Assembly (NCBI GenBank): GCA_036172245.1
Contig: JAYWIR010000074.1
Location: 186,001-250,000 of the forward strand
From: Raillietiella orientalis
Taxonomy: Eukaryota
Direction of reading: 5' to 3'
Length of the DNA: 64,000 nucleotides
Position 1 is the first letter of the stretch. Each line of letters starts with the position of its first letter. A model generated the notes under the pieces. The model was not told the DNA's origin. It did not search any database and was given only the letters and a program-made list of their open reading frames with translations. The position numbers were made by a program, and so were the translations under genes. This document shows positions 1-55,480 of the stretch, piece after piece.

Positions 1-415
1 CCTCGCCGGGATGTTTCAGAGGAATGGTAATGTTCCCTGTTACAATCCCATGGTGAGGACGACCATCGCCCTCTTCATCACCGCCATACTTGTGCGGTGG
101 TGGAAAATGAGGAAAGCCAGAAGAGCCGCACCACCGATGGAGATCCTACAAGGGCTCCTGAAGAGAGAAATCGAGATTAGAAACTGTGGGAAAATCCAAG
201 CCTGGACGTACCGATTCATCCTGAAGAGGATAAAAGACGACGCCCGGGACCAAACAGCAGGAAACCCACCATGGGTGCAGAACTTGTGAGAACCCAAGGA
301 CTTCGTAGTGGTAAAAAAAGTGCTAATGGTATGGATGAGATTGTAGTGTGAATGTTTTTATAGATAAATTTCAGAAAAATAAATTTACCCCACCCCTCGT
401 GGGACTCGGGGAAAA
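1..415 (+). mobile_element. 3' fragment of lineage C LINE (end of ORF2, 3'UTR, AATAAA-hairpin terminus)
   Basis: Closely similar to 38985-39401; ORF 11-289 matches the C-terminus of lineage C ORF2; ends AATAAATTTACCCCACCCCTCGTGGGACTCGGGGAAAA. Confidence 0.9.
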
Positions 416-1639: not shown

Positions 1640-1778
1640 ACTATCCTGTGTACTGGCGATGTTGCACTATGCTACTTGTCAGATTGCACAGTTACACACA
1701 AGTGCGAGCAAAAACGCAGGCACAAAGTTGCCCGATCGTTGGCGCGGACAGACGCGGAAACACGTCTGCACTGTACGA
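416..1778 (-). mobile_element. 5' part of lineage A LINE (5'UTR + ORF1), cut by the C insertion
   Basis: Paralog of 39402-40762; GACGTGTTT motif at 1761-1766; joined to host APE sequence at ~1779. Confidence 0.9.
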
Positions 1779-2091
1779 GCGCAAGAGATCGAACGGATCT
1801 CCGGAGGGCGGCAATAGTACTGGTGTGGGAGAGCGAAAAGTTGCGCTGTCGCCTACCTGCTTCGGCCAGCCGTCGAGGCCGCGGCTCGGGGCGTGCAGTT
1901 CGACGATTACGGTCGTGTCGGCCAGCTGACTCTCAGGTGGTCCGACTCGATCGATCTGATCGTCAGGAACGTGTACGCACCGAGCGGCGCGGAGGATGTG
2001 GAAAGAGGTTTTTCTTGCTCCATCGCGACTGGCTGACCGAAGCAGGCGTGCGGAATGCTTATGTGGTTGCAGGCGATTTCAACGTTCGCCT
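1779..2091 (+). mobile_element. APE fragment of a lineage D host element (QEI...NVYAP...GDFN)
   Basis: Aligns with 45472-45801; resumes at 10426 after the B' insert. Confidence 0.85.
2076..2091 (+). repeat. 16-bp target-site duplication, left copy (ATTTCAACGTTCGCCT)
   Basis: Identical copy at 10426-10441. Confidence 0.9.
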
Positions 2092-2238
2092 TCATACGAG
2101 TCGGACGTGATTTCTTGTCGCTCCGTGGTTTCGCTGTTTGGTTGTGTTTGTGCATCCCACTGCACATCCCCAAGCAGTGAACAACGCAAAGTGTAAGACC
2201 TCGAGTCTGTAGTTCAGGAACTTTCTGCAGCTGGAGTG

Positions 2239-3430
2239 ATGGCGAGAACGTGTGCGAGCCGTGCGCCACCGACCAGGAGCATTGTGGACGTGGCTGCTTC
2301 TGCAGTCGTACAAGGATTCCTCTCCGACTAGGCGGACATGCAAGCCTATGCAGCCCAGGCCTACAAGCCTGCTGCCTGCTTTAACGTAAGTGTAGTAGGT
2401 AAGGCTGGGGAGGATTTCGAGGGTGAACTGTACCGTGTGGGAGTGCGAGAAGAGGACCTCATAGCACTGATGCCTGTTCCAGCATTGGGCTATGTGAAGG
2501 TTTGATACAAGCAGTCTGCACTTGTGCAGAAACTTCTCCGCACTCCTTTGTCCATCCGCGGAAATGAAGTTTTTCCTTCCGCGATGGACGAGTCTTTTGT
2601 CGTTGTTCCCTAGGACGTAGAGCCGGAGATCAACGACAAACAGTTGATGGACGCGTTGGCGAAATTCGCAACCGTTCATGCGGTGTGGAGGAAGGAGAGT
2701 TCCTACAGGAAATTCCCTTCCGCACACACAGGATTTGCTGCGGTTATGGTAACTGTTTCTAACTGCCGCACGCTGCCTACCACGCTACAGGTCATCGGCA
2801 CGGACGTTCACCCGTGGTTCGTTGGCAAAACTCGCGCGTGCGAGCAATCCGGCAAAGAAGGGCATCGGGGTAAAGAATGCCCTTCCCCGAAGTGCCGCTC
2901 CTGTAAGGAGTCCGGGCACGAAATTAGAAAGTGCCCGGACATAAACAAAACAAAGAAGGCTGCTAGAATCCGGGGTGCTAAAGAGTGCGCAGAGGAGAAA
3001 ACAGCATCCTCAAAAAAAAAAAAACTGGGAGGCTCGCGGAAGACCGAAGATAAAAACGGCCCGAGCGAGGTCTCAAAGTTGGCTCCCTTAGAATCAAAGC
3101 CCCAAAAAAGCAATCGCGCGGCAAGGAAGCCATTTAAAAAAGGGAGAGAAGGCTCTGCGCGTACCGTTACTGTCCCAGTAGCTGATCACGGAGACGCTAC
3201 TTGCGAAATGGGATCAGTAAAACCAGTCGCTCCGTGCGACAAGGCGAAAGAAGCACACGCGAAAGAAAATTGCGTGGTAACCGTCTCCTTGAGAGCTCTT
3301 TACATTTTGGAGGCTTCAGTCGGAAACCTCACGCAGGCGTCTGCAGGTCCGTCGAAAAAAGCCGACAAAAGCAGCGCTGATTTGCCTCAAAACACGCAGC
3401 AACCAGCTGCATGCTCCCCAAGAAGACAGA
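2239..3430 (+). pseudogene. B' ORF1, degraded and interrupted
   Basis: ORF 2644-3693 has KFATVHAVW and knuckle CRSCKESGHEIRKC; stops and frameshifts upstream; start approximate. Confidence 0.75.
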
Positions 3431-6400
3431 TTGCCCCAAGTCCCACAAGGGGTGGGGTAAATTTATTCTTCTATAAAAATACACTTCTTACATTCGCACT
3501 CTCATTCACTCAATGCAAACACTTTGCACTTGGGAGTCCTTGGGTTGCACTGGAGTTCTGCTTTTCAGGGAAGGAATCCAGTTGGATGGTCCCGGGCGTC
3601 GTCCTCGATCCACTTCAGCATGAATCGGTATGTCCAGCCTTGGATTTTCCCACAGTTTCTAATGCCGATTTCCCTCTTCAGGAGCCCTTGTAGGATCTCA
3701 GTCGGTGCTGCGGCTCTTCTAGCTTTCCTCATTATCCACCACCGCTCAAGTATGGCGGCGATGAAGAGGGCGATGGTCGTCCTTACCATGGGATTGTAAC
3801 AGACAACATTACCATCCCCATAGAGCATCCCGGCGAGGATCTCCATTACGGACCTGGTGATGAGTCCGATGATCCTTTTCAGGATCAGTCAGTCATGCAG
3901 CAATGTATGACACGTCAAGACGTGAATTCCCGTGTCGTTGTGTCCCCATGCCTTGCAGTCTCGATCATCCCGCCTTTTGGTATAGTATTGCATTCGCGAC
4001 CCACTCTGGATTCCTCCATGATAAAACATCAGGAGGTCACCCTGAGTCCTCGGCGGATGGTCATCCCTCCAGAGCATCGTGCCATTCGCTAGCAGGTTGA
4101 TCCGGTCACTACCGTAGCGATGAGCGGCTTCCTGGAGGGCACTGATGTCACGGTCTTCTTCCCGAATTAATCTTCGGAAATTTATTTCGAATACCCTCGA
4201 CCACGCGAAGTCGTTGCGGTTGAGCCACACGTCGAAAGTCATGTGGGTGAACCTTCCTAACATCATCTCTAGATACCCAAGTATACGAGCGTGATGTAGG
4301 TACCCTCCTCGCCTCCACTCCTAAATTCGTTGTAGGGTAACTCTGGACCGCTGGTGGAACCAGCTCCTCGTGTCAGGCGGGACGGGAAGCATCGAAGGGA
4401 TCACCAGGATGGACTCGACCTGCCAGAGTTCCCAACTTCTCGGCACGATCTTGATTTTGTGCTTTCGCACCAGGCGTTGCTTCCTCGTCCACGTTGGGTC
4501 GATATGTTTCCATTCGCATGCTCGGCCTAGCAGAGCAGTCATCAGGCCTTTCGAGTTCTTCAACAACAACGCGTATTCCCTGTGCGCCGCATAGGGCCAG
4601 TCATCCCAGTGGGTGGCAATGTCCAGGATGTGTCGCGTATCCATGATTTCTATGAAGTGTGCAAGCGACTTCATCCCGAAACCGCCTTCTTCCCAGGGAC
4701 GACAGAGGGGTTTTAGTCGAACTCTTGGGCCATAGTCGCCACAGAGTGTTTTTCTCTGCAGCTTGTCGAACTTCCTCGTGGTGTCCTTCTTCATCCTTTC
4801 GAAGGCCGCCCCGAAAAGCACTTTTGGAAGGAGTACTTTGTTCCATATGTTGGCCTTTCGCTTCATTCCAAGGTCCGTTCGGGTGTACTTAGCTGCTTCC
4901 TTGGCCCTTTTTCCTAGGATCTCGGACCACAATAGCTTCGACGCGGAGACGTCGCCAATGTAGACACTTAGGTACATGGCATTGTCCACAGTTCGCAATC
5001 CCTTTCTCCCTAGAGCGAAGAGATCGAGGATTTCAACGGGCAAGAGCTGGAATTTCTGGGCGTTGATCTTAAGACCGACGCCTTGATCCATCAGGTCTAC
5101 CACTTCCAGAAACGCTCGTTGATTTCTCTCTACCTTGAAAAAGAAGAATAGATCATCAGCGTATGTTAGATGGGTAAGACGCTGGCCATCGATTGTTATA
5201 CCTTGCAGTCGTCCGCTCTTCTCGATAAAGGACGGCAACGCCTTCATGTAGATAAGGAACAGCATCGGACTTTGCTAATCGCCCTGCCGGACTCCCTGTG
5301 CCATCCAGATTGCTGCCGTCTGCTTGCCGTTGATTTTGATTAGGCAGTACTGGTTCTGGGGTACCACCCTTACGAAATTGCTGAAGTGTTTTGGATGGCC
5401 TACCTTCTCCAGAATCTTCAGCAGCATCCCATGGTCGATGGAGTCGAAAGACTTTTCCATGTCAGCGAATACCAGCGCCAGGTTCTCGCCGACGTATCGG
5501 CTGAGTCCGACGGTGGCCTGGGCACACTTGACATTGCCCGACATGTGACGTCGAGGGACTGCACACGTTTGGACCGGAGAGATGAGCTTCGACATGACCC
5601 TGCCTATGCGGATGGACCAGATCTTCGCCAACCACTTGGCTCCGGAGTTCAGGATTGAGATTGGCCTTCATTGAGCGATCTGTGTTGGGTCGCCTCCTTT
5701 AGGCAACATTTCCATCATACTCTAGTAGGAGGAATTAGGTAGTCTTCCTTCTTCACGGATGCAGAGGGTCAACGGGTGGAGCAAGCGCAGGTAGGCATGC
5801 AGGTACCGCTTGTAGTGCGTGATAGGAACAGTGTCAGGGCCCGCCGCTACATCCTTGCGCAGTTGTCGAAAAGCAGTCTTCACCTTATCTTTGGAGAATT
5901 CCTCCTCCAGTTTGTTCCGCTGGAGGTCGTCCGTCTTTTTCTCGAGATAGCTCAGAAAGCCTTGTTGACTAGAGCGACAAAGATGTTGTCGCCTGAAGTG
6001 TTTGGTGTAATCCCTGTGAAAGGCATCCACGATATCTTCGGTCGACAGTCGCTATTGACCGTCATACTGAATGCAGAAGATATCCGTTGCCAGGTTTCTC
6101 TTCTTTCGCACGCCTACCTCCTCTTTTATGTTGTTTAAGACGTTCCGACTCTTGTACTGATCGAAGTCCTTTGAGAGTGAGCGATCTTGGATGTTCAGCT
6201 CCCGGTACGCCTCCTGCCTCAAGCGCCTATCCTCGAATTGCATATTTGCAAACAGGTGTATCCTGTGTTTTAAGCTGTGCCAGTCGGCAACTCTTCTGAT
6301 TTTTGTGGTCTTTAGAATCGTCTCCAGGACATCCTGATATCCAGGATGAGTCTCGAACCAGGCGGGCATGCTAATGAGCGCCGCCCTAGTGCCTTGCCTC

Positions 6401-6700
6401 CGCCGAGCATTCTCCGTTCTTAAGGAAAACCGTTCTAACGGGTGATCGGACAGAGTGATCACTGTGTCTCGAAAACCCTGAATGCGCCGCAACATCCTTG
6501 AGCAGTTTTGCAAAAGCAGTCTTCACCTCGTTTTCGGAGAATTCCTCCTCCAGTCTATTCCGCTGGAGGTCGTCGGTCCTCTTCTCGAGATAGCTCAGAA
6601 AGGTTTGTGGACTAGAGCGACAGAGATGTTGTCGCCTGAAGTGTTTCGTGTAATGCCTGTGAAAGGCATCCACGATATCTTTAACGACTGTCGCTCTTGA
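3431..6700 (-). mobile_element. Lineage C LINE, 5'-truncated (end of APE, RT, 3' end), with an internal duplication
   Basis: GVRQGD, YADD, DMEKSFD in ORFs 4321-5265 and 5275-5631; C-type terminus at 3431-3467; ~6487-6700 repeats ~5845-6060. Confidence 0.88.
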
Positions 6701-9700
6701 TCGCGCAGGAGGAAAGCTACTTTGGCGGTGTGGCGACGCGCGTACGTGCGGCGTCGCGTTACTCTTAAGAGGAAAAATTGCGGAAGCGGTGAGTAGTGTT
6801 CGCTCCGATGACGACGGAGGGGTAAGCCAGCTTGGTATCAAGTGGTCTGAGTCCATCGATGTCTTGGTGACGAACATCAGCTCGCATAGTGGCTCGCGCT
6901 ACCTCGAAGATAGAATTGCGCTATTCGAGGATGTGAAATGCCACTGGCTCAACAACTCCGGCTCCCAAGTAACGCACCTCGTCGCAGGCGACTTCAACGT
7001 CTACCTGCTATCCGACGAATGGAGCTGCCCGAGGTAGCGAACGTCGGCCATCGAGATGTGCGCGTCAGTACGCGCTATCAATTTGATGGTCCGCGTACCT
7101 GAGATGGATAGGTCACCGGATCACACCTTCCTCGATGACAACCTGCACGCTCGTGTGGAAAGAAGAGGAAGATTGTCGTCCGCACTTTGTGATCATAACA
7201 GGTTGAAGTTCGAGCTCCTTCCGCCAGGCAAGGGGCCTCCGCTGAAAAACTGGAGGATGTCGGCAAACTGGCTTAACCATCCGGAGGCGACGGATCATCT
7301 CCGTCAGTACCTCCGGACCTTCGTCATCCGCGAATTCGCGGACTGGGATCATTTGAAAAGATCAGACCGCAAGTTCTGCGAACCGTTTCTCTTGCACCGG
7401 CTCCCGCAAGGATTTTGAGAAGGGGTCGCCAACAGCAGTACTTTCCTGCAGGCGCGCACCTTTTCCAGAAGCGCTGAACTCAGCCAGCTAGCGGAATACA
7501 AGTCGAGAGCCGAGCGACAGATCTGGCAGTCTGGAACATCTTGCTTGCTCGGCGAAAAAGGCCTGGAGTGCTCGACACCAGCCGGTATTCGCCGCATCGT
7601 AAGGCGTCAATACTCCTCCCTATTCGTGGTAGCGCATACGGAAAATATTTTTTCGGAGATACTTATGTTCCAGGATGCTCTCGTTGTTAGGGAAGAGGAA
7701 CGCGCATGTCTCGACGAGTCCTACACAGCAGAGGAAATTTCCTCCGCTATTGCGGGACTCCAGAGACGAAAAGCACCAGGTGAGGACGGGCTACCCGCGG
7801 AGTTCTATCAGAGCTTCTCGACGGAACTCGTCCCTCCGGTGTTTAGTCTCTCCCGTTGATGAGGGTCTCGGGGGATGTCCCCAATTCCTTCCGCTCAGCG
7901 AGGGTGCGTCTCCTGCCGAAAGGTGGAGACGAACGCCATCTCAACAACTGGCGTCCGATCATCCGGGTGAACTCGGACGTCAAGTTGTTCTCCAAGATGT
8001 GAGTTGCGCACCTAGGGAGAATCGCGCAGTCCTTGGTAAGCCCAGAGGAGACTTACGCTGTTCCCGGGCGGTGCAAGGAAGCAAACCTCCTGTTTCCCGT
8101 ACCTGGATGCAGCTGCAGGAGCGCGTTGCGCAGCCACGCCGATACGTGTCCAAGGCCGCTGCAAAAGGCACACGGTATCGACAGAAGCGTAAGGAGGGTA
8201 CGCCTGGTGCCTTGACGGTCGCAGTCGACCTGCACAAGGCGCTCGATTGCGTGAACCAAAAGCTCTTATTAGAGCTCCTGGAACGCCTAGGTCTCCCGGC
8301 GTATCTCCTGAAGTACTTACGCGCTTGCTGCCGCCACGCGCTAACCTGCATTTCTTTTAGCGGCTGCCACGTGTACGGTATTGCTGTGCGTAGGGGCATC
8401 ACACAGGGTGACAGCTTAACCTCGTTGCTCTTCAGCATCTTCTCCGAGCTGGTGCTGAGGGCGTACAGGCTGTCGCTGGAGTACCTGCCAAGCTCCTGTT
8501 CGCGTACGCCTGCCGTGGCTGCCTATGCAGACGACCTACTTCTTCTGCACCCCATCTCCACACCGGCAGCCAGTGTCGAAGATTTATTCGAACTGATTCG
8601 TCGGGGAGCGGGCGTGAGTGGAAACCGGAAGAAGAGCGTCGTCGTACCTGTAGGAGCGTCGTGGGAGGGGCAGTCCAACTAAATCCGCCTGGGGATCCTA
8701 ACGGCAGGTTATTTCCAGTACCTTGTAGTTCCGCTGCGCAACCTGGGTTCTGCCGAGGCGTGGTGGGACTGCCTTCAAAGGGCAGAGTTGGCAGTCAGCC
8801 CGTTCCCTAACGGCAAGTTCACCTTGCCGGAACAGGCAGCTATTTGGAACACCTTCGTGGCTCTTCTCGTTCGACCCCTGTTTTTCTTCTTGGACCCCTC
8901 CCTACACGGCTAAAGAGCTGTCAAAACGCCTGCAAAGGAACGCACTCTGGGGTCCGGCGCGATCCAGGATCGTCCTGAAAGACCTCGCGGCTCCACGTCG
9001 GGATGCTGGGCTTGGCATCCTTACGATGGAGAGAATCGGACTGCAAGTGCAGTTCCGGATGCTCGCACTGTGTGCTCAGCTATGGACATTCCCCCTGTGT
9101 GCGCCTGCGCGCATACTCCTAAGAAGGTGTGCAGGCTGTGAAGGACTTCATTCCTTGGTGTCTGGCATGCGTTACAGGAAACAGGGATTTGGCTTTCCTC
9201 TGAGGCAAATCGCCTCCCTATTGGAAGCCAATGCGTGGATTTCCTGCTGCCCGATGAACTACAATGCTTGGCGGTATGAGTCCATTGATTGTTGGGCTGT
9301 ATCGTTAGGAATAAGCCGTGAAGATCTTTGCCCCCAACGTCGATTTCAGCCTCAATCCCTTGCTGGACGAGGTGAAGTTTTCCTCCCTGGCCTCCACGCC
9401 GCTCGCCGAAGCACTGTCTGCACTCAAGGATCGAGATGAGAGTAGCCAGCCGGCGAAGTGGGTGTTCTCTCGCACCATTGCAGGTAGAACAAAACCAGTT
9501 GGCAAATAAGCCAAGAGCGAGCTTGCAGTTGCCGCCACTCCTCGTGCAGCACCAAAGGTATTACTTCGGTGAGAAGAAGAACTAGGTGTAGCTTTCGAGG
9601 AAATTACAATACCTATTTGGTGTTTGGACGGTTCGGTGTTTTTCTTTGCATGAAAGCAATACGTTTTGCTCTTCTTGCACTGAGGCTTGCGCTACAACGA

Positions 9701-10112
9701 GCGGTGCCACCGAGTTTACGGTGGTGTGGCTTCTTACTACTGTGCCCGGTGCGGGGCGACGGAGTCGTTCCCGCACCTTGTTATGCATTGCAGTGCCCTC
9801 CAGCAACTCTGGCGGTGGCAAGCAGCATCTTTTCGGCTTCCGGGGGACATTGATCGAGAAGTGCTACGACGCTTCTTCCAGCCACAAGGACTTTCAATGG
9901 CTGCGACGATTTCCACTGTTGGGTTCATCCGCGCCATCGTCACGGTCCGAGACGTGCTGGAGAACACTGGACAGCAATGTTGTGTCACCAGGAAGGCAGC
10001 TGACTTCATCAGTTCGGCAGCTTAGTGGCGAAACTTATATGAAGACACAACGGAGGAGCTAACCTTTATCCATCGCCGGATCACCAACGGCTTCGAACGA
10101 CGAAATCTGTGA
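6700..10112 (+). pseudogene. B' ORF2 (APE-RT-zinc finger), many lesions, N-terminus missing
   Basis: AGDFN, PGEDGLPAEFY, DLHKALD, GITQGD, AYADD, CARC...PHLVMHC; closely parallels B1 ORF2. Confidence 0.88.
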
Positions 10113-10425
10113 TCCGCCCTCATTTTATTTTTGATTGTTTTTTTTGTTCTGGCGTCCTTTTTCCCATACGCTCCGCAGTTCTTTTGGAGCTAGAACTTTT
10201 GATTTTACCGTTGACTGCGGAGCAATCTCAAAGTTCCCTAGCCGACTCCTCCCATTTACAATTTTTTTTTTTTTTTGGACTCCCTTCAGTCGTCCATGTT
10301 CTTCCGTTTTCCTGGCCTGCATGACAGGGGTGAATCTCCGCTGCATGTTTTCCAAATGCATTGCTGGGAACAATTGTTTAAGGCACGTTTATGTCAATAA
10401 ACGTATCGACGTGACCGGGTGAAAA

Positions 10426-10441
10426 ATTTCAACGTTCGCCT
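10426..10441 (+). repeat. 16-bp target-site duplication, right copy
   Basis: Identical to 2076-2091; the host APE frame (FNVRLKPD) continues after it. Confidence 0.9.
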
Positions 10442-12295
10442 GAAACCAGATGTGCCGAATCCCGAACGCGACCCGGTCAACGGAGTGTGCATGCCTTTGC
10501 ACACCAGTAATTTCTTGGCCAGTGCACCGGGGATGGAAGACAGCATTGACCACGCGGAAAGACTTCGATTGCGTCGACGAGAATGTCCTTCTGGAGCTTC
10601 TGGAACGCTTGGGCTTCCTGGCCTCATTAGTGGCCTATCTGCGCTCCTGCTGGCGCGACGCGCTTATCAACGTTTCTTTCAGCGGGCAGACCGTGCACGG
10701 CGTGCCGGTGCGGCGTGGGATCCGGCAGGGAGACAGCCTGAGCCCCTTGCTCTTCAGTACCTACTTTGAGTTGGTATTGAGAGAGTACCGGGGAACTTTG
10801 GCGCACCTGCCGCACAACTGTGCCGGTACGGCGGTTGTTTTAGCGTACGCGGACAACCTTCTGCTGCTGTTCCCTATGTTTATCCCGGCTTTGGAGTTCT
10901 TCGACCTGCTGCATCGGGAAACCGGACTTCCGGTGAACAGGGCGAAGTCGCCCGTGATGCCAGTTGGTGCGGCGTGGGCAGGGCAGCAGGACTGGGCCCG
11001 TTTGGGGATCCTTAGGGTAAGGTACTGCAAGTAGCTTGGTGTGCCGTTCGGGGACTACTCCTCTGCGGAAGTGTGGTGCGGCAGCCTCTAAAAAGTAAAG
11101 ACGGCGATCGGCCGGTTCCTCGACGGCAGGTTTTTCCTGCCTGAACGGGCCGCAGTTTGGAACACGTTTGCGGCTCCTCTCCTCCGTACCCTGCTTGTTG
11201 TTTGCCATACGTTCGAACGGTAGTGCCTGGTTGCAGGAAACCGTTCGAACGTGGGGACAGTTCGGCATTCAACGCTCCCAACAGGAACGTAGGTTTCTGT
11301 TTGAGGGTTCGAGAAGTTGCACGCTTTGTGAGTTCCTGGAGGATCCAAAGAAGAGAGCGTAGGCATGAAGAACCCCTTTTTCTGCTGCGATGCCCTACCT
11401 GATGGAAGATGTGGACAGCGATGTTGCGGCGAAGTGGGAGGTTACAGTAACAATCTAAGGAAAGGAGAAGAAGATGGGAGTGTGGAATACGAACAAGTTA
11501 ACAGACGCTGCAACCCCGAGTACGCCTTCCAATGAACTTCCATGCTGTTGCGCGCTGCTCGACGTTCCCATTGAACGTTTGAAGTGGCCCAAGGTAGTGA
11601 TGAACACCTCCATCTCCTTCTTAAAATAACAGCAGTCGGCATTTCTGTTGCAGTACTGAAGGCTCTCCTGCAACGTCCGCCGACACCACTGGACCTGGGG
11701 AGTGGTGGACCCCGATTGCGTCAGGTGTACGGAACGGGTTCCCTCTTCCACCTGCTTGTGGATTGTGTTGCCCTTCGGCCCCTTGGGTTTCGCTTTGCAG
11801 CGGCCATCCGAATCCCCTGCCGCAACCCCACGCTCTGAAAGCCCTCTTCGTTGCCGACGCCCTTCGGCCTGCGGCCTCGTTGGCAGCTTTGTGCTGCCTC
11901 CGCGGGATCGTCGATGCCTGGAGCATTGCGACGCGAGGACCACACGACCAGAGTGCCATCCACCCAGCCTCCCAGTTTCTGAGGAGGGCGTCCAGATGGC
12001 CTCACCTGCATCCAGGAATACAGAAAAACCTTCTCGGCATCCTTCAAAAGATGCAACGGCCCCACCAGCAACTGTGATCCTTTCCCTTACCCTCCCAACT
12101 TTACTTTCCTTTTTTGTTTTGTTTTTTGTTTTTCTTCCTTTCCCCTGCTGCCGTGCTGGACCGTACCGTTCTGCGAACCGATGACCCGATAGGCTCTGTG
12201 TTTCTTCGTGCGTGCCTGGATCAATGGTTCAGCCACTGCACATCTTTGTAAATGTTCATTTTAGAATAAACTCTTCGGCGAAATCCGGGTGAAAA
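10426..12295 (+). mobile_element. Remainder of the lineage D host (internally deleted APE/RT, C-terminus, 3' end)
   Basis: Matches ~45786-45913, then ~47010-47670, then ~48030-48128; GIRQGDSLSPLLF; 3' terminus at 12265-12295. Confidence 0.85.
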
Positions 12296-15200
12296 TCGAA
12301 TGCTCCATGCATATTTACTGCTACTGCAAAGGCTACCGGCCTTTGTCCCGTCCTTCAGCAGTGGCGCTCGCAGTCGACAGGTCTTGCAGCTGTTTGGCTG
12401 TCCGTTCCAACGCGCTCTTGCAGCTGCCACCAGGTGCACGCGAAAAGAAGGTTCGCATCCATGGATATACCCGATACAGCGTAAGACTGCTCCGGGCTTA
12501 CCACGGAATCCGCGACTCCCCCGTAGGCGCGTGACCCACAGCTTCGAAAACAACCTGACGTCCGTATTCACTAACATGATCGGACGCCTGTTGTTGAGAT
12601 GGCGCAGATCTCCTCCTTTCGGAAGGAGACGCATCCTCGCTGAGCGGAAAGAAGGGACATCGCCCGTCACCCTCATCAGCGTCGAGAGTCTGAGCAGCAG
12701 TATGGCGTGTTTCGTCTTGAAGCTCTGGTAGAACTTCGCGGGAAGCCCGTTCTCACCTGGCGTCTTTTTTTTCTTGAGTCCTGCGATGGCGGAAGAAATT
12801 TCCTTTGACGTGAAGGGCTCGTCGAGACGGGCGCTTACCTCCTTGCCGATGCCGTGTGCACCCCGCGGCAGAAGCAGCTCCGAGAGGATTCTCTCCATGA
12901 TTGATTTGGGGTAGAGCGAGGAGAAGTGACGCCTTAGTGTTCGCCGTACTTCGGCAGGAGCGATGCATTCCAGTCCTTGGTAGTCGAACACAATAGCCGC
13001 TCCAGACTGCCAGACCTGGCGCTAGGCCCTTGCCTTGTACTCTGCGAGGTGCCGGACTTCCGCACGTCTAGAGAAGGTGCGCGTCTGCAGAAATTCTGAG
13101 ATAATGGCCACCCCTTCTCCAAAGCCGCGCGGTAGGTGGTACAGGGGTACCCGGTTGCAAAACTCACAAACCGATCTTTTAAGATGGTCCCTGTCTGCAA
13201 GCCGCCGGATGGCAAAGCCGCGAAGAAACTAGCGAAAATGCTCCGCCTCCTCTGGACGACTGAGCCAATCTGCCTGCATTCTCCAAACATTGTTCGGAGG
13301 TCCCTTGCGCGATGAAAGTAGCTCGAACTCCAGGCTTTCATGCTTCGATAACGTAGACAACACCCTGACTCTCCTTCCCACTCGTGAGAGTAGGTGTTCA
13401 TAGAGGTTGACGTGATCTACGCTTCTTTCCAGTCCAGTCTCGCCGGCTTCCTAGTTACGCGCTTGCACCGACGCGCGTGCCTCCATAGCCGCGACCGTTC
13501 CGCCTGGGACCTCGTCTCGTCGGAAAACAGGTGGACGTTGAAGTCCCCTGAGACGAGACGCGCCACTTTGGCTACAGAGTTCCTGAGCCATTGGCTCTCC
13601 AGTTCGTCTAAAAACTCGATTCTTTCGGCGCGCCGAAGAAAGCCGCTCGGCGCGTAGACGTTCTTCAGGACGAGGTCGATTGAATCTGACCACTTGAGTA
13701 CAAGTTCGACTATTCGCCCTTTCTCATCAATTCGAACGCTACACTCCGCTCTTGCCATCCTACTGTTAACGAGAAACCCGACTACGCACGATTGTGCGGA
13801 ACCTTCTCGCCAGTACAGGGTGACACCCGCGCGCTGTTGAATTTCAGCAACCTCCGCGTGGGAGATGTGATGCATCTCCTGAAGGATCGCCAAGTCGAAA
13901 TGTTGCAGGGGGTCTAACACGCCGCGCCTCTTTCCGTCCCTGCGCAGCACGTTTACGTTCCAACAAACTACGCTGAACCGACGAAAAGATGCGACTTCCT
14001 GAATTAAGGCTGGGAAGGTGAGCACAGGTTTCTCGCCTTGTCCGGCGTGCGGTCACGAGACAGAACGGCAGATCTTGAAGACTGTACATCTCCATTCGAA
14101 GCCGCCCTGCTGGTTGGCGGGAGCTCTGAGGTGAGGCTTATCCCCTCCTCTTTGCTTTGCGGCAACAATTCCGCCTCGGCAACCAGGGGCTAGCGGGTCT
14201 TCGGGAGGAAATTGCGCGGTTTCGGGCGGGTTTCGTGCTGTGTGCTCATTCTGTCGGACTCTGGATCAGAATCTGACAATCGAGCGCTTGCCAGGCGCTG
14301 CTTCTGTTTCCCGGAATTAGGGAAATTATTTTCTGCCTGTTTCTTAGCGCTTTCTGCTACTACGGCTGGGACTTTCGCCCTTTTTACCGCAGCAGCAGCT
14401 TCCCCCTCCATCCGCGAGAGGACGACTGCACAGGAGGAAAGGATCGCAATCTTTTTGGGGGATGGTTTCTCGGGTTTTTTTCGGCCTCTCACGTTCACAC
14501 AGAGCTGCAAAGACCTTGACGGTTTCTTTTCAATTACCTTTCTCACCTGCATCCAGCCGTTTTCCTTCGCATCGCAGTTATCTTTGCCCTCCTGAGATGG
14601 CGCTGCGTCCGCGGATGTAAGAGGCGCTGCCTTGTCTGCCTCTTGAAGTGCTGAATCCGCGCAGGCGTAAGCGACTCCCTTAGCGATCGCGGGAGGTGCT
14701 GCCTCTTTCAGAACGATGGATTCGCGCGTTGCGTTTGCGACCGCTGGAGGCACTGCCCTGGCGTTTGTGCTCGCCTGAGCAGTTTCTTCCATGGCCGCAG
14801 TAGGCGCTGCGTCCGCGCGCGAGGGCTGCGGGTTTGCTGGCTGTTTCGTTGTGGCACTCGGCGCCTGGGGCTCCTTGGCCGCGGTAGGTTTAGCCTGCAC
14901 GGTGTTCTTTGCCCACGGGCGCGATTTTCCCGTATCGGGTGAGCGACCGCATTCCTCGCCACTTGCCGAGGCCTTGATAGGAGGCTTCGCAGTCGCGATG
15001 CCGACAGTGGGAGGATTCTTGCCCTTTGGCGCACTCTCTGCTGCTTTGAAAAATTCGCTGCGAGGTCTCGGTAAAATTTGGCATTCTTCGCGAGCTCCCG
15101 TCGGCACGGTAGCCTGAGGCTTCGCCGCTACGAGTATTTTTAGGTTTTTCTCCCCTTTTTTGGAGAGGGGAGGAAGAGTTTTCTGCGCATGCTCGCTCGA

Positions 15201-16155
15201 GGTTTTCGAAACGCTCTCCGAAGTTTTGAGGTTTCTTTCCCTCGATTCGCGGCGTTTATTTCGCGATGCGAAACGCGCTTCTTTCTTTCACTTTTGTTTT
15301 TTAAAAAGAGTTCCGGGCACTTTTTTTTTGTGTGTCCGGGCTCTTGGCATTAACGACAAGTGGCCGAGGGACACTTAGTAAGGCGGTGACCCTCCGGCCT
15401 GCATTCCGCGCACACAAGCGTTTGCCCCGCAAACTAGTCATTCCATCCACCTGCAGTCACGTGAGCATTGCCCGGTGATCCGCTGTCGTCAATCGCACTT
15501 GCGCGATCCCGCTGTGGTGGTCTTCGAAACCCTCAGCAGGGTATGGCAACCTTCAAAGCGCGTGAACAGAGGCGAATTTTTCAAGTGCCTCCAAGACCTG
15601 GCGGTCTGTAAGGAACTTGCTCACTCCACTCAGCCGGACAACGAACGATTGATCCGCAGTGGCGGCAAGTATTTCCTGCCCACGAATAAGCAGCAGCGTG
15701 TGCAGCAAACGCTGCGTAAGGAGAGCGTCCTTACTGGACACCGCCCAGTAGCCGCAACCACTCATGGACATGATGGACTCTAGCTGGCCTTTTTGAACTC
15801 CAATCCGTTGGAGTTCCTGGCCAATCTCGCGCCCATCCCGCTCAGGCATAAGCACACTTACCTTATACCTGAGTGAAGGCGTGTAGCCATTTGCTACATA
15901 CGTTTGCATCTCAGGGCTATCGAGCGAAGGTCTCATGGTAGCCGCGAGGGCAGCTACCTGGGCGAAGGTCCTAGCCGTCGGCGAGGACATGGCTCCTTGC
16001 CAGCAGCCGAAAACGCCATCTAAGGAACAGGTACCGTCCCTTTCTTGCGGCAGCTGTTCCTCTTTGCTGCCATTGCAGCACAGAAGCACAGCAGAGCCAA
16101 AACACACAAGAGTCAGCATACCGCGGAGCGACGGAAAAGCACGTCCGTACGCGGC
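12296..16155 (-). mobile_element. Lineage G LINE, 5' part (ORF1 ~15990-14190, APE, RT N-terminus), cut at the HKAFD-equivalent motif
   Basis: GACGTG at 16140-16145; SLRYKVS ORF1; WNVN, LQEMH, NVYAP, GDFN in ORF 13417-14025; PGENGLPAKFY in ORF 12221-12991. Confidence 0.85.
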
Positions 16156-18266
16156 AGGCGCTGATGCGTGAGACGGGAGATGTTCCCGCTTCTTTCCGCT
16201 CAGCAAAGGTGCGGCTCCTCACGAGAGGCGAGGATTTGCGCCACCTCAGCAACTGGCCTCCGATCACCTTGGTTAATTGGGACGTCATGTTGTTCTCGAA
16301 GTTATGAGTCGCGAGGCTGGGGAGCGTCACAAAGTCCTTGGCACACGTATGCTGTTCCGTGGCGGTCCATGGACGCGAATGTCTACTTCGCGCGAACATG
16401 GTTCGAGTTGCAGCAGAGCGTTGCAAAGCAGAGTCACGCAGCCAAAATCGCCGCTTCCAAAGGTAAGCGGCGGTGTTCAAGGCACGATGCAGCGCCAGAA
16501 GCCTTCGCAGTCGCCGTAGATTTCTGCAAAGCGTTCGGCAGCGTAAACCAGGACCTCCTACTAAAGATTCTGGGACGCCTAGATTTCCCGACGCACCTCA
16601 TCGCCTACTTGCGCTCCTGCTGGCGCCACGCGTTATGCTGTATCTCTTCTAGCGGGCGCCACATGTACGGCGTTCCCATACGGCGGGGTATCGGGCAGGG
16701 AGACAGCTTAAGGCCCCTGCTCTTCAGCATCTTCTTTGAGTTTATGCTTAGGGCGTACAGGCTGATGCTGGCCAACCAGACGAGCTCCTTCTCGGGAACT
16801 CCGGCCGTGGCCGCATATGCTGACGACCTTCTCCTGTTGCTGCCCATGTCCCCCCTGGCGTCCAGGCTTGAAGACTTCTTCGAGCACATTCGTCGGAAGA
16901 CGGACGTAAGCCTCAACAGGAGCAAGCGCTCCGTTGTTCCGGTGAACGGAAAGCGAGTTACTGCTTTCGTTGCTGCCCCTCTTTCGGCACACCAGCATAG
17001 GGTTTGTCTCCCAGCTGAGGCAGCTGTCCTTACTGCTGGAAGCCCAATCTTGGATCTCCTGCCGCCCCATGAACATTAATGCATGGCGGCAGGAATCTTT
17101 TTCATCGTGGGCAGCTTCCAAAGGAACGCCTCTTCAAGATCTTGGACGCCTGCGACTTCTCCTTAGACATAAATAGGACGAAGTCATGCCGGACAAGAAG
17201 AAGTCGGATCGCCTGACCGCCACACCACTCGCCGCAGCGCTGTGTGCCCTCAGGGCAAGCAACGAAAATTGCCTACCTGCGAAATGGGAGTTCTTCTGCA
17301 CAATAGAGGGAGTAAGTAAGCTCCTTGGCGGCTTGAAGACAAAGGAGCTGGTGGAAACTGCCACTCTTCGTAATCGGCCGAAGGGCCTGCTTCGGTGGAG
17401 TGAACATTTTAGTGTAACCACCGAAGAGATAGTGGTTCCCCCCGTTTGTCTGGACAACTCCGTGTTTTGCTTAAAATGGGAACAAGATGTGCTGCTCTTT
17501 CTACACTGAGGCTTCCACTGTAATCAGCAGCGAGGCATCGTTTCCAGAGGAGCTGCTCTGCCAAACTGTTCGAGGTGCGGAGAGATCCTGTCTTTTCCGC
17601 ACCTCTCATTGGACTGCGGTGACCTCCGTGAACTGTGGCGGTGGCTGATTTCAGCCTTTTCGCCGCAGGGATACACTGTCAATGATGTGCTGCGGCGCCT
17701 CTTCAGGAGGAATGGATTTTCGGTAGGCGCGAATGTCGCAACCATGTGTTGCATTCGCGCCATCGTGAAGGCCCGCTACGCCCTGGAGGTGTCAGCGCAG
17801 CGAAGGGAGTCTCACCGGTTTGCAGCAGAATTGATGCAACAGGCTGCTAGGTGGCCTTATCTTCGTGACAAGGTCAAAAAGGACATCGACGCATCCATCG
17901 CCGGTTTACAGACTTCTAGGAACGGCTTAATCCGGTGATCACTTCGTCCTGGAGCTTACCCATACCCCTTCTCCGCTCGCTCTGCTAAACTGCCAGTGCG
18001 ATTACTTTTATCCAAGTGCGAACCATAGCGATCCCAAAGTCCCTTGTCCCGGCGTCCACCATTGATTCCTTTTTATGTTGTTTCTCTTTGTTTGTGTTTC
18101 TAGTTCCCCCACACCGTTCTGTGTTATTCTGACCTGCGTGCCAGCAATGTTCTATTGATGCTTGTTCCGTCGTCGGCTGGGTCCATGGGTTCCAGCTGGT
18201 TCATTTTATATAATTCTTTTTGTTTATATCATATGAAATAAACGCCCAGGCGTGACCGCGTGAAAA
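16156..18266 (+). mobile_element. Lineage A-type LINE (A'), 3' part (RT, zinc finger, 3' end)
   Basis: GIGQGD, AYADD; C-terminal region similar to 29824-31000; terminus at 18237-18266. Confidence 0.85.
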
Positions 18267-18278
18267 ATCTCTTGCGCT

Positions 18279-19638: not shown

Positions 19639-22600
19639 TTTTCCTCTAGTCAGACAAGCAGTGGGGTAAATTTATATTCCATTTTTTAAAACACATTCAT
19701 TACAGAATCACATTGACACAACATACGCACTTTACATCCCTGTGAAGTCCTTTGGGATATTACAAGTTCCGCTTTCAGGATGGGTTTCCTGATGTTTGGT
19801 CCCGGTCTTCGTCTTCAATCCTCTTCAAGATAAGTCGGTAGGTCCAGGCATGGATTCGTCTACAGATCCCGATGCCGATCTCCTTCTTGATGAATCCTTA
19901 AAAGATCTCCATCAAAGGTGCGGCTCTCCTGGCTTTCCTCATTCTCCACCACCGCACAAGAATAGCGGTGATGAAAAGAGCAATGATCGTCCTCACCATG
20001 AGATTGCAACAGCGAACATTACCATCTCCCTGAAACATTCCGATGAAGATCTCCATTACGGATCTGTTCGTGAGTCCGATGATCCTTATCGGGATCAGCC
20101 AGTCATGCAGCAATTTGGGACACGTCAAGACGTGAAGTCCCGTGTCGTTGTGTCCCCATGCCGTGCAGTCTCGATCTTCCCGTCTTCCGGTATAGTACTG
20201 CATTCGGGACCCACTCTGGATTCCTCCATGATAAAACATCAAGAGGTCACCCTGGGTGCCCAGCGGATGGTCACTGTTCCAGAAAATCGTGCCATTCGCG
20301 AGCAGGTTGATCCGGTCACTACCGTAGCGATGGGAGGCTTCCTGTAGGCCACTGATGTCACGGTCTTCTTCCCGAATTAATCTTCGGAGGTTTGTTTCGA
20401 ATACCCTCGACCACGCGAAGTCGTTGTGGTTGAGCCACACCTCGCGGGTCATGTGGGTGAACCTTCCTAACATCATCTCTAGATACCCAAGTATACGAGT
20501 GTGATGTAGGTACTCTCCTCGTTTCCACTCCTGGATTCGTTGTAGGGTAACTCTGGACCGCTAGTGGATTTAGCTTCTCGTGTCCGGCGGGACAGGAAGC
20601 ATCCAAGGGATCATCAGGACGGACCCGTCCTGCTAGAGTTTCCTACTTCTCGACACGATCTTGATTTTGTGCTTTCGCACGAGCCGTTTCTTCCTCGTCC
20701 AGCATGGTTCGATTTTTTTCCATTCGCCTGCTCGGCCTAGCAGCGCAGTCATCAGGCTTTTCGAGTTGTTCAACAACAACGCGTAGGCCCTGGCCGCCGC
20801 ATTCGGCTGGTCATCCCAGTTAGTGGCAATGTTGAGGATGTGTCGCTTATCCATGATTTCTATGGAGTGTGCAAGCGACTTCATCCCGGAAACGCCTTCT
20901 TCCCTGGGAAGACACAGGGGCTTTAGTCGAACTCTTGAGGTATAGTGGCTCCACAGTGTTTTTCCCTGCAGCTTGTCGATCTCCCTCGTAATGTTCTTGT
21001 TCATCCTCGCGAAGGCCGCTCCGGAGAGCATTTTTGAAGGAGTACTCCGTTCTATATGTTGTCCTTTCGCTTCATTCCAAGGTCCGTTCGGGTGTACTTG
21101 GCTTCTTCCTTGGCCATTTTCCCTAGGATCCTGGTCCACAATACCTTGGACGAAAGTCGTAGCCAATGTAGACACCCAGCAACTTGGCATTGTCCACCGT
21201 TCGGAATCCTCTATCCGCTAGAGCGAAGAGATCGAGGGTTCCAACGGGAAAGAGCTGCCTTTCTGGACGTTGATCTTCAGACCCAGGTCTTGATCCATCA
21301 GGTCTACCACATCCAGAAACGCTCGTTGATTTCTCTCTCCCTTAATAAAAAAGAGTAGATCATCAGCGTATGCCAGATGGGTAAGACGCTGGCCATCGTT
21401 TGTTATGCCTTGCAGTCGTCCGCTCTTTTCGATAAAGGACGACAACGCCTCCATGTAGATAACGAACAGCATCAGACTAAGCGAATCGCCCTGCCGGACT
21501 CCCCGTTCCATCCGGATTGCTGCCGTTTCCTGGCCGTTCATTTTGATTCGGCACTTCTGGTTCTGGAGTACCACCCTGACGAAGTTGCTGAAGTGTTTCG
21601 GAAGGCCTACCTTCTCCAAAACCTTCAGCAGCATCCCATGGTCGATGGAGTCGAAAGCCTTCTCCATGTCAGTGAACACCAGCGCCAGGTTCTCGCCGAC
21701 GTATCGGTTTAGTCCGACGGTGGCCTGGGCACACTTGACATTGCCTGACATGTGACGTCCAGGGACTGCACACGTTTGGACAGGAGAGATGAGCATCGAC
21801 TTGATCCTGCCTAAGCGGTAGGACAAGATCTTCGCCAACCACTTGGCATCGTAGTTCAGGATTGAGATTGGCCTCCATTAAGCGATCTGGGTTAAGTCGC
21901 CTCCTTTTGGTAAGAATCTCATCCTACTCTCGTAGAAGGAATCAAGTACTCTGCCTTCTTCTCGGATGCAGAGGGTCAACTGTTGGAACAAGCGCAGGTA
22001 GACATGCAGGTACCGCTGATAGTGCGTGATGGGTACACTGTCATGGCCCGCCGCCAAATCCTTGAGCAGTTTTCCAAAAGCAGTCTTCACCTCGTCTTCG
22101 GAAAATTCCTTCTCCAGTCTGTTTCGCTGGAGGTCGTCGGTCCACTTCTCGAGATACCTCAGAAAAGCCTGTTGACTATTGCGACAGAGATGTTGTCGCC
22201 TAAAGTGTTTCGTGTAATGCCTGTGAAAGGCATCCACGATGTCCTCGGGCGACTGTCGCTCTTGACCATCGTACGAAATGCAGAAGATATCTGCTGCCAG
22301 ATTTCTCTTCTCCTGCACGCCGACTCCCCCTTGTATGTTTTTGAAGACTTTTCGACTCTCGTACTGATCGAAGTACTTTGAGAGTGATCGATGTTGGATG
22401 TTCAGCTTCCGGTACGCCTCCTGACTCGAGCGCCTATCTCCGAATTGTATATGTGCAAACAGGTGTATCCTGGGTTCCAAGCTGTCCCAGTCGGCGACTC
22501 TTCTGATTTTTGTGGTCTTCAGAATCGTCTCCTGTACCTTTTTATGTCCAGGATGTGTCTCGAACCAGGAGGGCATGCTGATGAGCGCCGCCCTGGAGCC

Positions 22601-22900
22601 TTGCTTCCGCCGTGGATTGTCCGTTCTTAGGGAAAACCGCACCAACGGGTGATCGGACAGAGTGGTCAAAGTCTCGAAAACCCTGATTGCGATTCCCTAG
22701 TTCGGTGCTGTGGAGTATGTGATCGATCGGCTTGTGACTTGCTGTTCGCCATACCAGTCCGAACTCGTCCGATAGTCGCCGATAAGCCGTCCTACTTCTG
22801 GCGTCTTGGCAATGAATGATCTCATCCAATAAGTTGAGATCACCAGCAACAATCACCACGTCCTTGGGGCGACCTTTTCACGGAGTGCTGCATGCAGCGC
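19639..22900 (-). mobile_element. Lineage C LINE, 5'-truncated (partial APE, RT, 3' end)
   Basis: AGDLN, IDH, LSDH, DMEKAFD, GVRQGD, AYADD in ORFs 21218-22859; decayed C terminus at 19639-19675. Confidence 0.88.
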
Positions 22901-29490: not shown

Positions 29491-29823
29491 TTCTCACCCG
29501 GTCACACCAGGGCGTTTATTCCATATAACATAACCTAAAAAGCAATTATACAAAATAAACCAGTTAGGAAACAAACTCCCAACTGACGACTGAACAAGAA
29601 TGAAGAGATTATTACTGGCACGGAGGCCAGAGTAACAGTTTTGCGAACGGTGTGGGGGGGCGTGGAACACAACGAAACCAGATTAAAATAAAAACAATGA
29701 ATAAGGAGGACGGGATAAGGTACTTTGGGATCGCTCTGGAAGACACGGGGATAAAACCACGGGCACCGGAAATTTTACCGAGCGAACGGAAATGGGGTAT
29801 GGGTGGGCGAGAGGTCGCAGGGG

Positions 29824-34299: not shown

Positions 34300-35991
34300 A
34301 TGGAAGCCATGGAGGTAACGTGCGGCAACGGCGAGGCGGTGGCAGGCATGCCGAGGATCGCGCCCGTGGCGGGCTTTGCTGCGCCTGCGGCGGCGATGGC
34401 AAGAGTAGTGCCCGCGGCGGGGAAGGTCGCGCCTGAGGCGGCGATGCCGAGGGTGCCTCCCGCGGCGGCAACGGTGGCGACGTCGAGAGTTGCGCTCGCA
34501 GCGGCTGCGTCCCAGGCAGGACGCGCGGGCGTCCACGCGGTCCAGAGCGAGACACCATCTTGTTCGGCTGCGGCGGCGTAGCCCTTTTCCTATGCGTCGG
34601 TGGCGGCTGGACAAGCGAGTGTCCACCCACCAAGAAAATTTGGGAAGCCGCTATGCGGTAAAGTCCAAAAGGTGTATCGGCCGATCGTGGAGTTAGGGCC
34701 GAATGTGAAGCCCATCATTTTCAAGACTGGGCTCATCAAGTTCAATAATATCAGGGAGGTTTATCTGTCCCTCGATAAAATGGACATGAATTTTGATCGC
34801 ATACAGGCAATCATACCAGCAAACAACGGGTTAACAGTCTTCACAGACTCTGAAAAGATTAGAGAGCGACTGATCCAGAAGGGGATCAATATACAAGGGA
34901 GGATGTTTTGTGGTGTTGGCAAGATGCCATACACAACCGTGTTTCTGATCGGCATCTCCATCCTCACACCGGAACTAACGGTTTAGAACTTTTTGGTGCA
35001 GTATGGGGAAGTTCTGGACCTTGAATTCTAGAACTTCTCTGAAAATATATTATGTATCGAAATGATCGCCAAAACGAAGTTGAAAGAGGGAGCTGTGTTC
35101 CCTGGATTAGCCGTTCTTGACGAACAATCCCAAAGAGTGAACGTGCGTTACCGGCAACAACCGATATTCTGCACCGGGTGCAAGCAGTTTGGCCACATGG
35201 CCGACGCTTGCCCAACGTGTCGTTGTTTCCGCTGCGGCAAAGTAGGACATCAAGTCCAAAACTGTCCGCAGCCGGAGGTGAGCTCCTTCTGCAAGAAACA
35301 CGGACATGCCAAATGGAGCTGTCCGGAGTTTGCAAACTGCAGAAGGATTCGAGGTCTCTCTCCCGTGAGAGAGAGAAACACCAAGGAGGCGGAACAGCCT
35401 CAGAAGGCAGGAAGGCCGAAGAAGGTGAAAGAAGTTGTCCCGGTATCGGAAGACGGCTTCATACAGGTTGGGAAGAAAGGAAAGAGGAGGATGCTCGTCA
35501 AGGAGCAAAAAACCCCACTTATCCTACAAAGTGAAAAGCAAGAAGGCGAGAAGATGGAGGTAGCGCAGGAAGGCGCGAAAGAGGAAATAGCCGAAGCCAC
35601 TTCGGTGTCGCAGGAGGCCCTGCAATCTACGGAGGAGTTGGCATCACTGGCTAATGAAGTCCTAGAGTTGCAGAGCGGTCCCCAGCAAGAGAAAATCTTG
35701 CAGAAGATCTGCAATGCACGGGAGAAGGTCAACAAGGTTGTGAAGGTCACCGAGCACGAAAAGCTAGAGGAACAGCTTCTGGACGTAAAGGCGAACTTTT
35801 GCGCCAAGTTCCAGATAGAGACGCTATCTCGAAAACTAATCGCGCGGGCTGAACACTGGACGGCGGAGGCGGAAGTAACCGATTTCCCCGGAACAGAGAG
35901 TGACGCCGGCAGCGAGGAGCCCGCTGCTACTTCATTGTCTGGAAGAGCACGCTCTCTCAGACATAAGAAGCTCAGGAAGGGCAAGAAATAG
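34300..35991 (+). pseudogene. C ORF1: Ala-rich repeats, three zinc knuckles; contains stops
   Basis: CTGCKQFGHMADAC, CFRCGKVGHQVQNC, SSFCKKHGHAKWSC in ORF 35062-35991; start approximate. Confidence 0.8.
34345..34505 (+). repeat. Degenerate 48-bp (16-aa) coding tandem repeat, ~3 units
   Basis: ATGCCGAGG / ATGGCAAGA / ATGCCGAGG at 34348, 34396, 34444. Confidence 0.7.
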
Positions 35992-36004
35992 GACTTCTCC
36001 TTTC

Positions 36005-39000: not shown

Positions 39001-39275
39001 TTCAGGGGGATGGTAATGTTCCCTGTTACAATCCCATGGTGAGGACGACCATCGCACTCTTCATCACCGCCATACTTGTGTGGTGGTTGAAAATGAGGAA
39101 AGCCAGAAGAGCCGCATCACCGATGGAGATTCCACAAGGGCTCCTAAAGAGGGAAATCGGCATGAGAAACTGTGGGAAAATTCAAGCCTGGACGTACCGA
39201 TTCATCCTGAAGTGGATAGAAGACGACGCCCGGGACCAAACAGCAGGAAACCCACCATGAGTGCAGAACTTGTGA
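36005..39275 (+). pseudogene. C ORF2 (APE-RT), frameshifted
   Basis: SWNANG, CLQETH, NVYGP, GDLN, IDH, WRPISILNSDAK, GVRQGD, ACADD, KYLG. Confidence 0.9.
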
Positions 39276-39401
39276 GTACCCAAGGACTTCATAGTGGTAA
39301 AAAAAGTGCTAATGGTCTGGATGAGATTGTAGTGTGAATGTTTTTATAGAAAAATTTTAGAAAAATAAATTTACCCTACCCCTCGTGGGACTTGGGGAAA
39401 A

Positions 39402-39416
39402 CTGCCGAGTCGGCGA
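39402..39416 (+). repeat. 15-bp TSD, right copy
   Basis: Pairs with 34076-34090. Confidence 0.88.
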
Positions 39417-49584: not shown

Positions 49585-49592
49585 ATTGAAAT

Positions 49593-53498: not shown

Positions 53499-53503
53499 TA
53501 CTG

Positions 53504-55444: not shown

Positions 55445-55480
55445 GATGAAGCGGATGAAAGCACGGAGACGAGAGCGAAG

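Follow-up and report, generated by a model that had tools for sequence, protein, structure and literature searches.

The 64-kb window analysed here (positions 186,001 to 250,000 of contig JAYWIR010000074.1 from Raillietiella orientalis; all coordinates below are those of the window) is filled almost entirely by nested retrotransposons that lack long terminal repeats (non-LTR). It raises the question of whether one of their lineages, named D, chooses its landing place by sequence. Two D copies, D1 and D2, end within codons of the reverse transcriptase (RT) genes of two other elements, F and G, and a preliminary description proposed that D had inserted antisense into the RT motif with a target-site duplication (TSD) that had to be deduced. 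This interpretation was supported by every part of it that could be tested within the window. D is probably a lineage of L1-like long interspersed elements (LINEs) whose copies integrate by target-primed reverse transcription, and do so at a single fixed sequence: the stretch that codes for H-K-A-F-D in RT motif A of other LINEs from the same superfamily. On the best reading its insertion is site-specific, driven by an apurinic-like endonuclease (APE), antisense and accompanied by a TSD of 14-16 bp, and the nested pile holds at least three further sites that are each specific to a lineage. The D lineage appears to aim at its own relatives.

Two D junctions at the H-K-A-F-D codons

The GC content of the window is 50-60%. 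A Pfam scan found Exo_endo_phos and RVT_1 domains recurring on both strands and lying in the same elements, the APE plus RT architecture of an L1-type ORF2. Element E, the sole one with open reading frames (ORFs), served as the mapping reference, and about 27 fragments of related elements were mapped with it by tblastn against the window. The solved structure (PDB) nearest to the reference APE plus linker was human L1 ORF2p (E-value 1e-12); for the RT alone, L1 ORF2p and R2 proteins scored about equally. The RT aligned to residues 595-724 of L1 ORF2p, the Asp of V-D-L corresponding to residue 600 and the aspartates of Y-A-D-D to 702/703; D600 and D702/D703, which we take to be the catalytic aspartates, are conserved positions. 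The further L1-type traits are an upstream ORF1, AATAAA with a short A-tail, 5'-truncated copies and a 16-bp TSD at element X. ORF1 of D1 carries two CX2CX4HX4C zinc knuckles. A protein search with the RT of E gave seven matches, the single close one being a metagenome protein of 56% identity, and in a contig scan with the same protein 14 stretches matched the pattern, none of which (0 of 14) was confirmed.

The letters quoted in the preliminary description were found in place: 12296-12310, next to the 3' end of D2, reads TCGAATGCTCCATGC, and 43585-43599, next to the 5' end of D1, reads TCGATCGCCTTGTGC, after which D1 starts at 43600 with GCTCTAGGGCGG. On the minus strand the first junction translates as ...AFAVAVNMHGAFD|FHPDF (in a longer reading ...AVAVNMHGAFD|FHPDF), in agreement with the AVNMHGAFD reported for host G, and the second as ...RPRA|HKAIDCVVQELL (longer form RPRA|HKAIDCVVQELLLELL), in agreement with the HKAID reported for host F. 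Both target copies read G-CAY-RRR-GCN-WTC-GA in the host frame, which corresponds to the H-K/G-A-F/I-D codons of an L1-like RT.

Ten L1-like RT copies were put in register around the K codon of KAFD. Compared with eight other RT copies, the homology of G ended at the Asp codon of KAFD and that of F began at the His codon preceding it. G is kept through ...CAT GGA GCA TTC GAT and is then replaced by the reverse complement of the D tail; F opens at (G)CAC AAG GCG ATC GAC and is preceded by the reverse complement of the first bases of D1. Two events in two hosts therefore bracket the same stretch, as had been proposed: G and F overlap in CAY-RRR-GCN-WTC-GAY with equal register and equal antisense orientation. 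Three of the ten copies that reach the site (G, F and D2) are broken exactly there, and the other seven (E, X, c16k, c31k, D1, c59k and c25k) run through it.

Two details of the earlier claim had to be adjusted. A short duplication is indeed implied, but its length is 14-16 bp and not exactly 15 bp, because the edge letters are ambiguous on both sides: the A at 12295 may be assigned to the A-tail of D or to the Asp codon GAT, and the first GC of D1 may be assigned to host F. The site does lie beside the first catalytic Asp, but this residue is not the Asp of KAFD; it is that of V-D-L (L1 ORF2p residue 600), two codons upstream of the duplicated stretch.

Both D ends are genuine: D2 has its 3' terminus at 12294/12295, and D1 starts at 43600 with a full-length 5' terminus. 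A regular expression for the 3'-end motif matched six times in the window. Five of the matches are element ends (X, D2, c59k, E and c31k), and the sixth, at 21344-21386, is unrelated and lies inside the RT of another LINE family, Q; decayed forms of the same tail occur in c16k and F. The 5' motif of D1, GGACGTGTTTT, is situated at a distance of 12 nt from its start; E, E2 and the element at 18270 show the same spacing, and close variants of the motif are present in X, G, F and the short element F'. All four window matches of the 5' word ACGTGTTTT lie just inside element starts (18291, 43612, 49575 and 55490).

D1 and D2 belong together: an alignment over 420 nt of RT downstream of the site showed 90% identity between them, compared with at most 74% for all other copies (71-74% for those next nearest to the lineage). 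The RT copies form two clades, one comprising E, X, c16k, c31k and G, the other D1, D2, c59k/W, F and c25k. Since F and G fall into different clades, they represent two separate hosts; F is 73-74% identical to D, and G is 53% identical to D1 and 64% to E. The two D junctions are independent and agree in register and orientation across the two hosts (n = 2, no complete copy).

All L1-like lineages in the window end alike, with AATAAAC, a small GC hairpin (CCCGG-CGTGA-CCGGG) and TGAAAA. Five pairs were predicted in the 3'-terminal hairpin and a compensatory change was seen in none of the five. The shared 3' end may serve as a stringent-type recognition signal.

In the mechanism that we propose, the D endonuclease would nick the sense strand of the host at ...AAR GCN TTC GA^T or GAT^T, the putative target letters for the D-lineage APE in the KAFD codons being ...CACAAGGCGTTCGATTGC... 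The freed host 3' end (T or TT) would prime cDNA synthesis on the short A-tail of the D RNA (...CCGGGUGAAAA), and priming from a sense-strand nick would leave the insert antisense to the host. On the opposite strand the cut would fall 14-16 nt further upstream, ahead of the His codon or within it, and this stagger would duplicate the H-K-A-F-D codons. D copies would then be expected to have antisense (A)TCRAANGCYTTRTG as their 3' flank and the same letters before full 5' ends. We infer where the nicks fall and how long exactly the TSD is, and also that specificity resides in the D protein rather than in the RNA tail. Such an insertion splits the RT gene of the host two codons after the catalytic Asp of motif A.

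The break at 10553/10554 and the alternative explanations

The third RT copy broken at the site is D2 itself. At 10553/10554 its APE codon ~209 (SIDH) is fused to GCGG|AAA GAC TTC GAT, skipping about 1.1 kb (D1 45913-47009). On its right side the break lies 4 nt ahead of the K codon, at the boundary nucleotide of F, and this edge would correspond to the second-strand cut of the KAFD site. By our own arithmetic the chance of a third break within 2 nt of the F edge is about 0.001, for a coincidence that was noticed post hoc. The edges may share a 3-nt microhomology, GCG. Our best guess is a repair scar, left when the endonuclease cut, the insertion was not completed and the ends were joined by microhomology; it is also possible that the deletion pre-existed in the RNA template. 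Splicing was rejected as its origin, since D1 has CAG|GT at the left edge and no AG acceptor fits the right one. Also rejected was the idea that the RT part of D2 is a separate 5'-truncated copy inserted at the SIDH codons of an APE, its 3' flank being the KAFD of G and not APE sequence. A second internal deletion of D2, at 11206-11215 compared with D1 47672-48032 (361 nt), lies at no recurrent site.

A sequencing run (run X1) matched 0.05 of the sampled words. At 80% likeness it gave 115 contig pieces on 9000-14500, and because 77 of these were less than 90% alike, the pieces are regarded as relatives and not as this genome. Three contigs of the run have ordinary RT sequence upstream of 10554, so the relatives are intact at that place.

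Several observations weigh against site-specific insertion of D. The D junctions number just two, a 5' one and a 3' one contributed by different copies, and the TSD is never seen directly; as the preliminary description had acknowledged, no D element in the window keeps both ends with both flanks. The 3' junction of D1, where the second target copy of F should be, is absent. To account for this, our reconstruction places near 48100 a single deletion, itself unobserved, that would have removed the 3' part of D1, the middle of F and the 3' part of E2. The two target copies are identical at 9 of 15 letters, and the copy in G reads HGAFD, not HKAFD. The break at 10553/10554 has no adjoining insert and hence is no ordinary insertion junction. 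Run X1, holding distant relatives only, reaches a depth of 0.53 over 12128-12311 and is uninformative on the D 3' junction. Finally, the junction pattern CCGGGTGAAARTCRAANGCYTT was found in metagenome contigs at three loci, all with prokaryotic-looking flanks and none (0 of 3) with a LINE protein match.

The KAFD codons could be a fragile or preferred spot, for breakage or for many lineages, owing for example to DNA structure or to a loosely defined nick motif (GAT^T, for instance), and D would then simply be the lineage sampled here. The break at 10553/10554, which has no insert, speaks for such a hotspot, as do the nick-side letters of several lineages, which end in (A)AT or GAT. However, within the window solely D-lineage ends occupy the KAFD site, and the other 3' ends (X, E, c31k, c16k, F, c59k and c25k) are found at different, lineage-specific places. 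We consider a shared hotspot unlikely.

Alternatively, D could insert anywhere, or anywhere within LINE islands, and have met the same codons twice by chance. In a window made nearly entirely of LINE sequence a hit in some RT gene is unsurprising, and two junctions are few; but orientation and register agree within 1-2 nt, for which we calculated a probability of about 0.002 (same orientation, offset of 0-20 nt, host of ~5.9 kb: 21/(2 x 5900)), the same nucleotide is broken a third time, and the other lineages of the window reuse their sites equally exactly. Coincidence is in our opinion distinctly improbable.

A rearrangement or an assembly artefact (an inversion, ectopic recombination of inverted RT copies, or a repeat mis-join at a conserved k-mer) is very improbable: repeat islands are hard to assemble and at least one non-insertional break, with a short palindrome, exists near 48081-48112, but recombination of RT copies gives RT-RT joins and not joins of RT to the exact canonical terminus of an element, no repeat common to both sides of either junction could have misled the assembler, and the nesting orders described below are self-consistent. 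Twin priming, or 5' inversion, was dismissed as the source of the head-to-head junctions, since the inverted partner is of another lineage and is located past the 3' end.

Nesting order and the sites of sister lineages

The window contains nested clusters that arose by insertion into existing copies. The coordinates of the features are collected in Table 1.

On the D2 side the nesting was reconstructed as c16k > G > D2 > X. The three pieces of D2 belong to a single copy. Between the first two lies X, which entered the (D)FNVRL codons of the D2 endonuclease in sense orientation. X is flanked by a perfect 16-bp TSD, ATTTCAACGTTCGCCT (2076-2091 and 10426-10441); no other TSD seen in the window is both complete and undecayed. 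At APE codons ~58-61 the left part of D2 is interrupted by the 5' end of another element, on the minus strand, which continues beyond the window, and consequently the missing 3' half of G should lie to the left of it. The 5' half of G is covered by tblastn at RT 5-82, APE 2-441 and ORF1 62-293; its 5'-end motif is at ~16135-16158 and its 5' end lies inside c16k.

On the D1 side the reconstructed order is W > F > D1/E/E2. F is a complete element spanning 41493-57795 and split by D1. Its APE (55500-55994) groups with the clade-2 elements W and Y. W (40761-41492) stops at the 3' tail of F and resumes at 58391, after the 5' end of F at 57795 and F', and its target is present in three copies of ~15 nt (41478-41492, 57796-57810 and 58391-58405). 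W being split by F, and the 5' half of F being present, D1 lies inside F and not beside a 5'-truncated F; the possibility that F is a mere 5'-truncated copy adjoining D1 was discarded when its 5' untranslated region (UTR), ORF1 and APE were found at 55500-57795. F' may be a non-autonomous deletion derivative.

E is preceded at its 5' end by host ...GGAGATTTCAAT, and AATTTCAAT separates the E tail from the 5' end of E2. The two elements are arranged head to tail at one site, with only (A)ATTTCAAT between the E tail and the E2 start, and the tandem looks like a re-insertion at the upstream copy of the target. At 48081-48112 a non-insertional break joins D1 (RT ~aa 434, plus strand) to E2 (ORF1 ~aa 533, minus strand). 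The region 48081-48125 contains a short palindrome, AACAGGAAC-GAAG-GTTCCTGTT, and a deletion or a foldback rearrangement probably produced the break.

The sites used by the other lineages were listed by reading all 3' ends and full 5' ends in the window (Table 1). Sister lineages have complete 15-16 bp TSDs at fixed motif codons, which makes the TSD length deduced for D credible. The same 3' tail is found in all lineages and the sites differ, so pairing of the RNA tail with the target cannot set the site; site choice is more likely to reside in the encoded proteins. The host letters at the junctions of the c31k and c16k lineage are ...AGAGAT/AGAAGATT, and the 18266 junction is a tandem in which AATCT separates the c16k tail from another element's 5' end.

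A broader proposal is that at least four sister L1-like lineages share out the most conserved ORF2 motif codons of one another as private landing sites. Their endonucleases would have diverged in the manner of homing enzymes, with kin as the recognised targets, every hit would put a competitor out of action, the island would build itself, and 10553/10554 would be the scar of a D endonuclease on a D copy. We put this forward tentatively and rate its chances as slightly below even.

Table 1. Positions of elements, junctions and insertion sites in the window (orientation of insertion sites is relative to the host)
Feature	Positions	Strand or orientation	Remarks
D2, APE codons ~61-170, left of X	1776-2091	+	blastn 85% to D1 45461-45801
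D2, APE codons ~165-209	10426-10552	+	joined at 10553/10554 to KAFD site
D2, RT from KAFD site to 3' end	10554-12294	+	blastn 87-91% to D1
D2 3' terminus	12265-12295	+	AATAAAC...CCGGGTGAAA(A); motif AATAAAC-N-CCGGGTGAAAA
3'-end motif, other copies	X 10396-10424; c59k 61289-61317; E 49594-49622 (-); c31k 29492-29520 (-)		
Shared 3' ends	10390-10425, 12259-12295, 61283-61318, 18231-18266	+	
Shared 3' ends	29491-29526, 49593-49628, 41493-41530	-	
Target copy in host G	12295-12310	-	H-G-A-F-D, decayed from H-K-A-F-D; G homology ends
Host G 5' half: 5' UTR, ORF1, APE, RT up to KAFD	12296-16158	-	tblastn
Element X, sister lineage	2092-10425	+	nested in D2 at APE GDFNVRL codons
Host F 3' half: RT from KAFD to 3' tail	41493-43599	-	tblastn RT 79-614/682
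Target copy in host F	43585-43599	-	H-K-A-I-D; F homology starts
D1: full-length 5' end, ORF1, APE, RT to ~aa 434	43600-48100	+	tblastn
E2	48112-49584	-	at GDFN codons of F
Element E, tandem with E2	49593-55499	-	ORFs open; at GDFN codons of F
Element E frames	ORF1 53507-55513; APE 52194-53531; RT 49909-52026	-	frames open
Host letters flanking E	55500-55511 and 49585-49593		
Host F 5' half: 5' UTR, ORF1, APE up to GDFN	55500-57795	-	beyond D1
F'	57811-58390		~580 nt; solely F-type 5' and 3' UTR sequence
Site of D lineage: KAFD		antisense	2 events
Site of E and X lineage: GDFNVRL codons		sense	3 events
Site of c31k and c16k lineage: APE codons ~60-66	29491, 18266, ~1776, ~40760	antisense	positions are junctions
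Site of F lineage: linker codons ~309-313		antisense	2 events, tandem
Site of c25k: near linker codon ~281		antisense	
Q family	3565-6690 (-), 19752-22696 (-), 34900-39286 (+)		second LINE family

The Q family is a second, distant LINE family, whose RT is 24-30% identical to that of E by tblastn. It has an ORF1 with zf-CCHC, an APE and a strong RVT_1 match, and its copies are nested within copies of the main family. A composite of a Q-family 3' end and a minus-strand ORF1 element is present at 1-1643 and at 38987-40628 (93-95% identity). Both composite copies lie at APE codons ~58-62, beside different hosts (D2 and W), and the arrangement could stem from transposition of the whole composite or from a segmental duplication.

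Comparison with known target-specific elements and implications

Site-specific LINEs are known for ribosomal DNA (rDNA), telomeric repeats, small RNA genes, microsatellites and one DNA transposon, Tx1L of Xenopus being situated in the DNA transposon Tx1D. D resembles Tx1L and the Tx1 group in being an element with an L1-type APE and RT that probably occupies one fixed site, in fixed orientation, inside another repeated mobile element. Its apparent target, however, is the coding sequence of kin LINEs (RT motif A), in place of a DNA transposon, RNA gene or microsatellite, and in the window several sister lineages each have a different site in one another; the likeness drawn here is one of features. 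The available text of PMC3747384 describes a target-specific Tx group within the L1 clade, and that of PMC4640811 describes Utopia as another target-specific LINE with an APE.

Zepp of Coccomyxa ('Chlorella') and ZeppL of Chlamydomonas are L1-type LINEs of GC-rich algal genomes, nested by targeting existing copies, according to the available text of PMC8226300 (which credits Higashiyama et al. 1997) and PMC3446292. They share with the window the arrangement of nearly pure nested LINEs, a likeness of arrangement; none of the seven protein matches to the RT of E was a Zepp-named protein. The Zepp/ZeppL family is further marked by a single cluster on each chromosome, situated at the putative centromere. 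In contrast, at least four lineages here have separate, nucleotide-exact sites. An exact target nucleotide, motif or TSD of Zepp or ZeppL is not named in the available text of PMC8226300 and PMC3446292, and Higashiyama et al. 1997 may describe one.

Like D, the R1 element of insects has an APE endonuclease, which cuts both strands of one conserved multicopy target (28S rDNA) and gives precise insertion with a short TSD; the specificity of the R1Bm endonuclease is reported in the available text of PMC1919474. The target of R1 is a host gene, whereas that of D would be the RT genes of other parasites, which D disables. By sequence the APE and RT of the window stand nearest to human L1 ORF2p among solved structures, with R2 proteins equal on the RT alone.

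Full-text literature searches returned no report, in the available main texts (including PMC3446292, PMC8226300, PMC9940879, 10.1101/2025.03.28.645958, PMC3747384, PMC11005252, PMC8287924 and PMC5203782), of a LINE that targets the codons of RT motifs in other LINEs; the point may be touched on in Higashiyama et al. 1997 and Yamamoto et al. 2003.

If the proposed behaviour of D is true, a LINE with a fixed target in the catalytic-motif codons of related LINEs would constitute a new target class. The different specificities on the scale of 15 bp, carried on one scaffold, would be natural endonuclease variants and a system for following the evolution of APE recognition. Each insertion, by splitting the RT gene of a rival, would be an act of competition between transposon lineages. 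LINE-only islands grow by nesting, and targeting of this kind would provide a nucleotide-level mechanism for the self-building of such centromere-like islands of the Zepp/ZeppL type.

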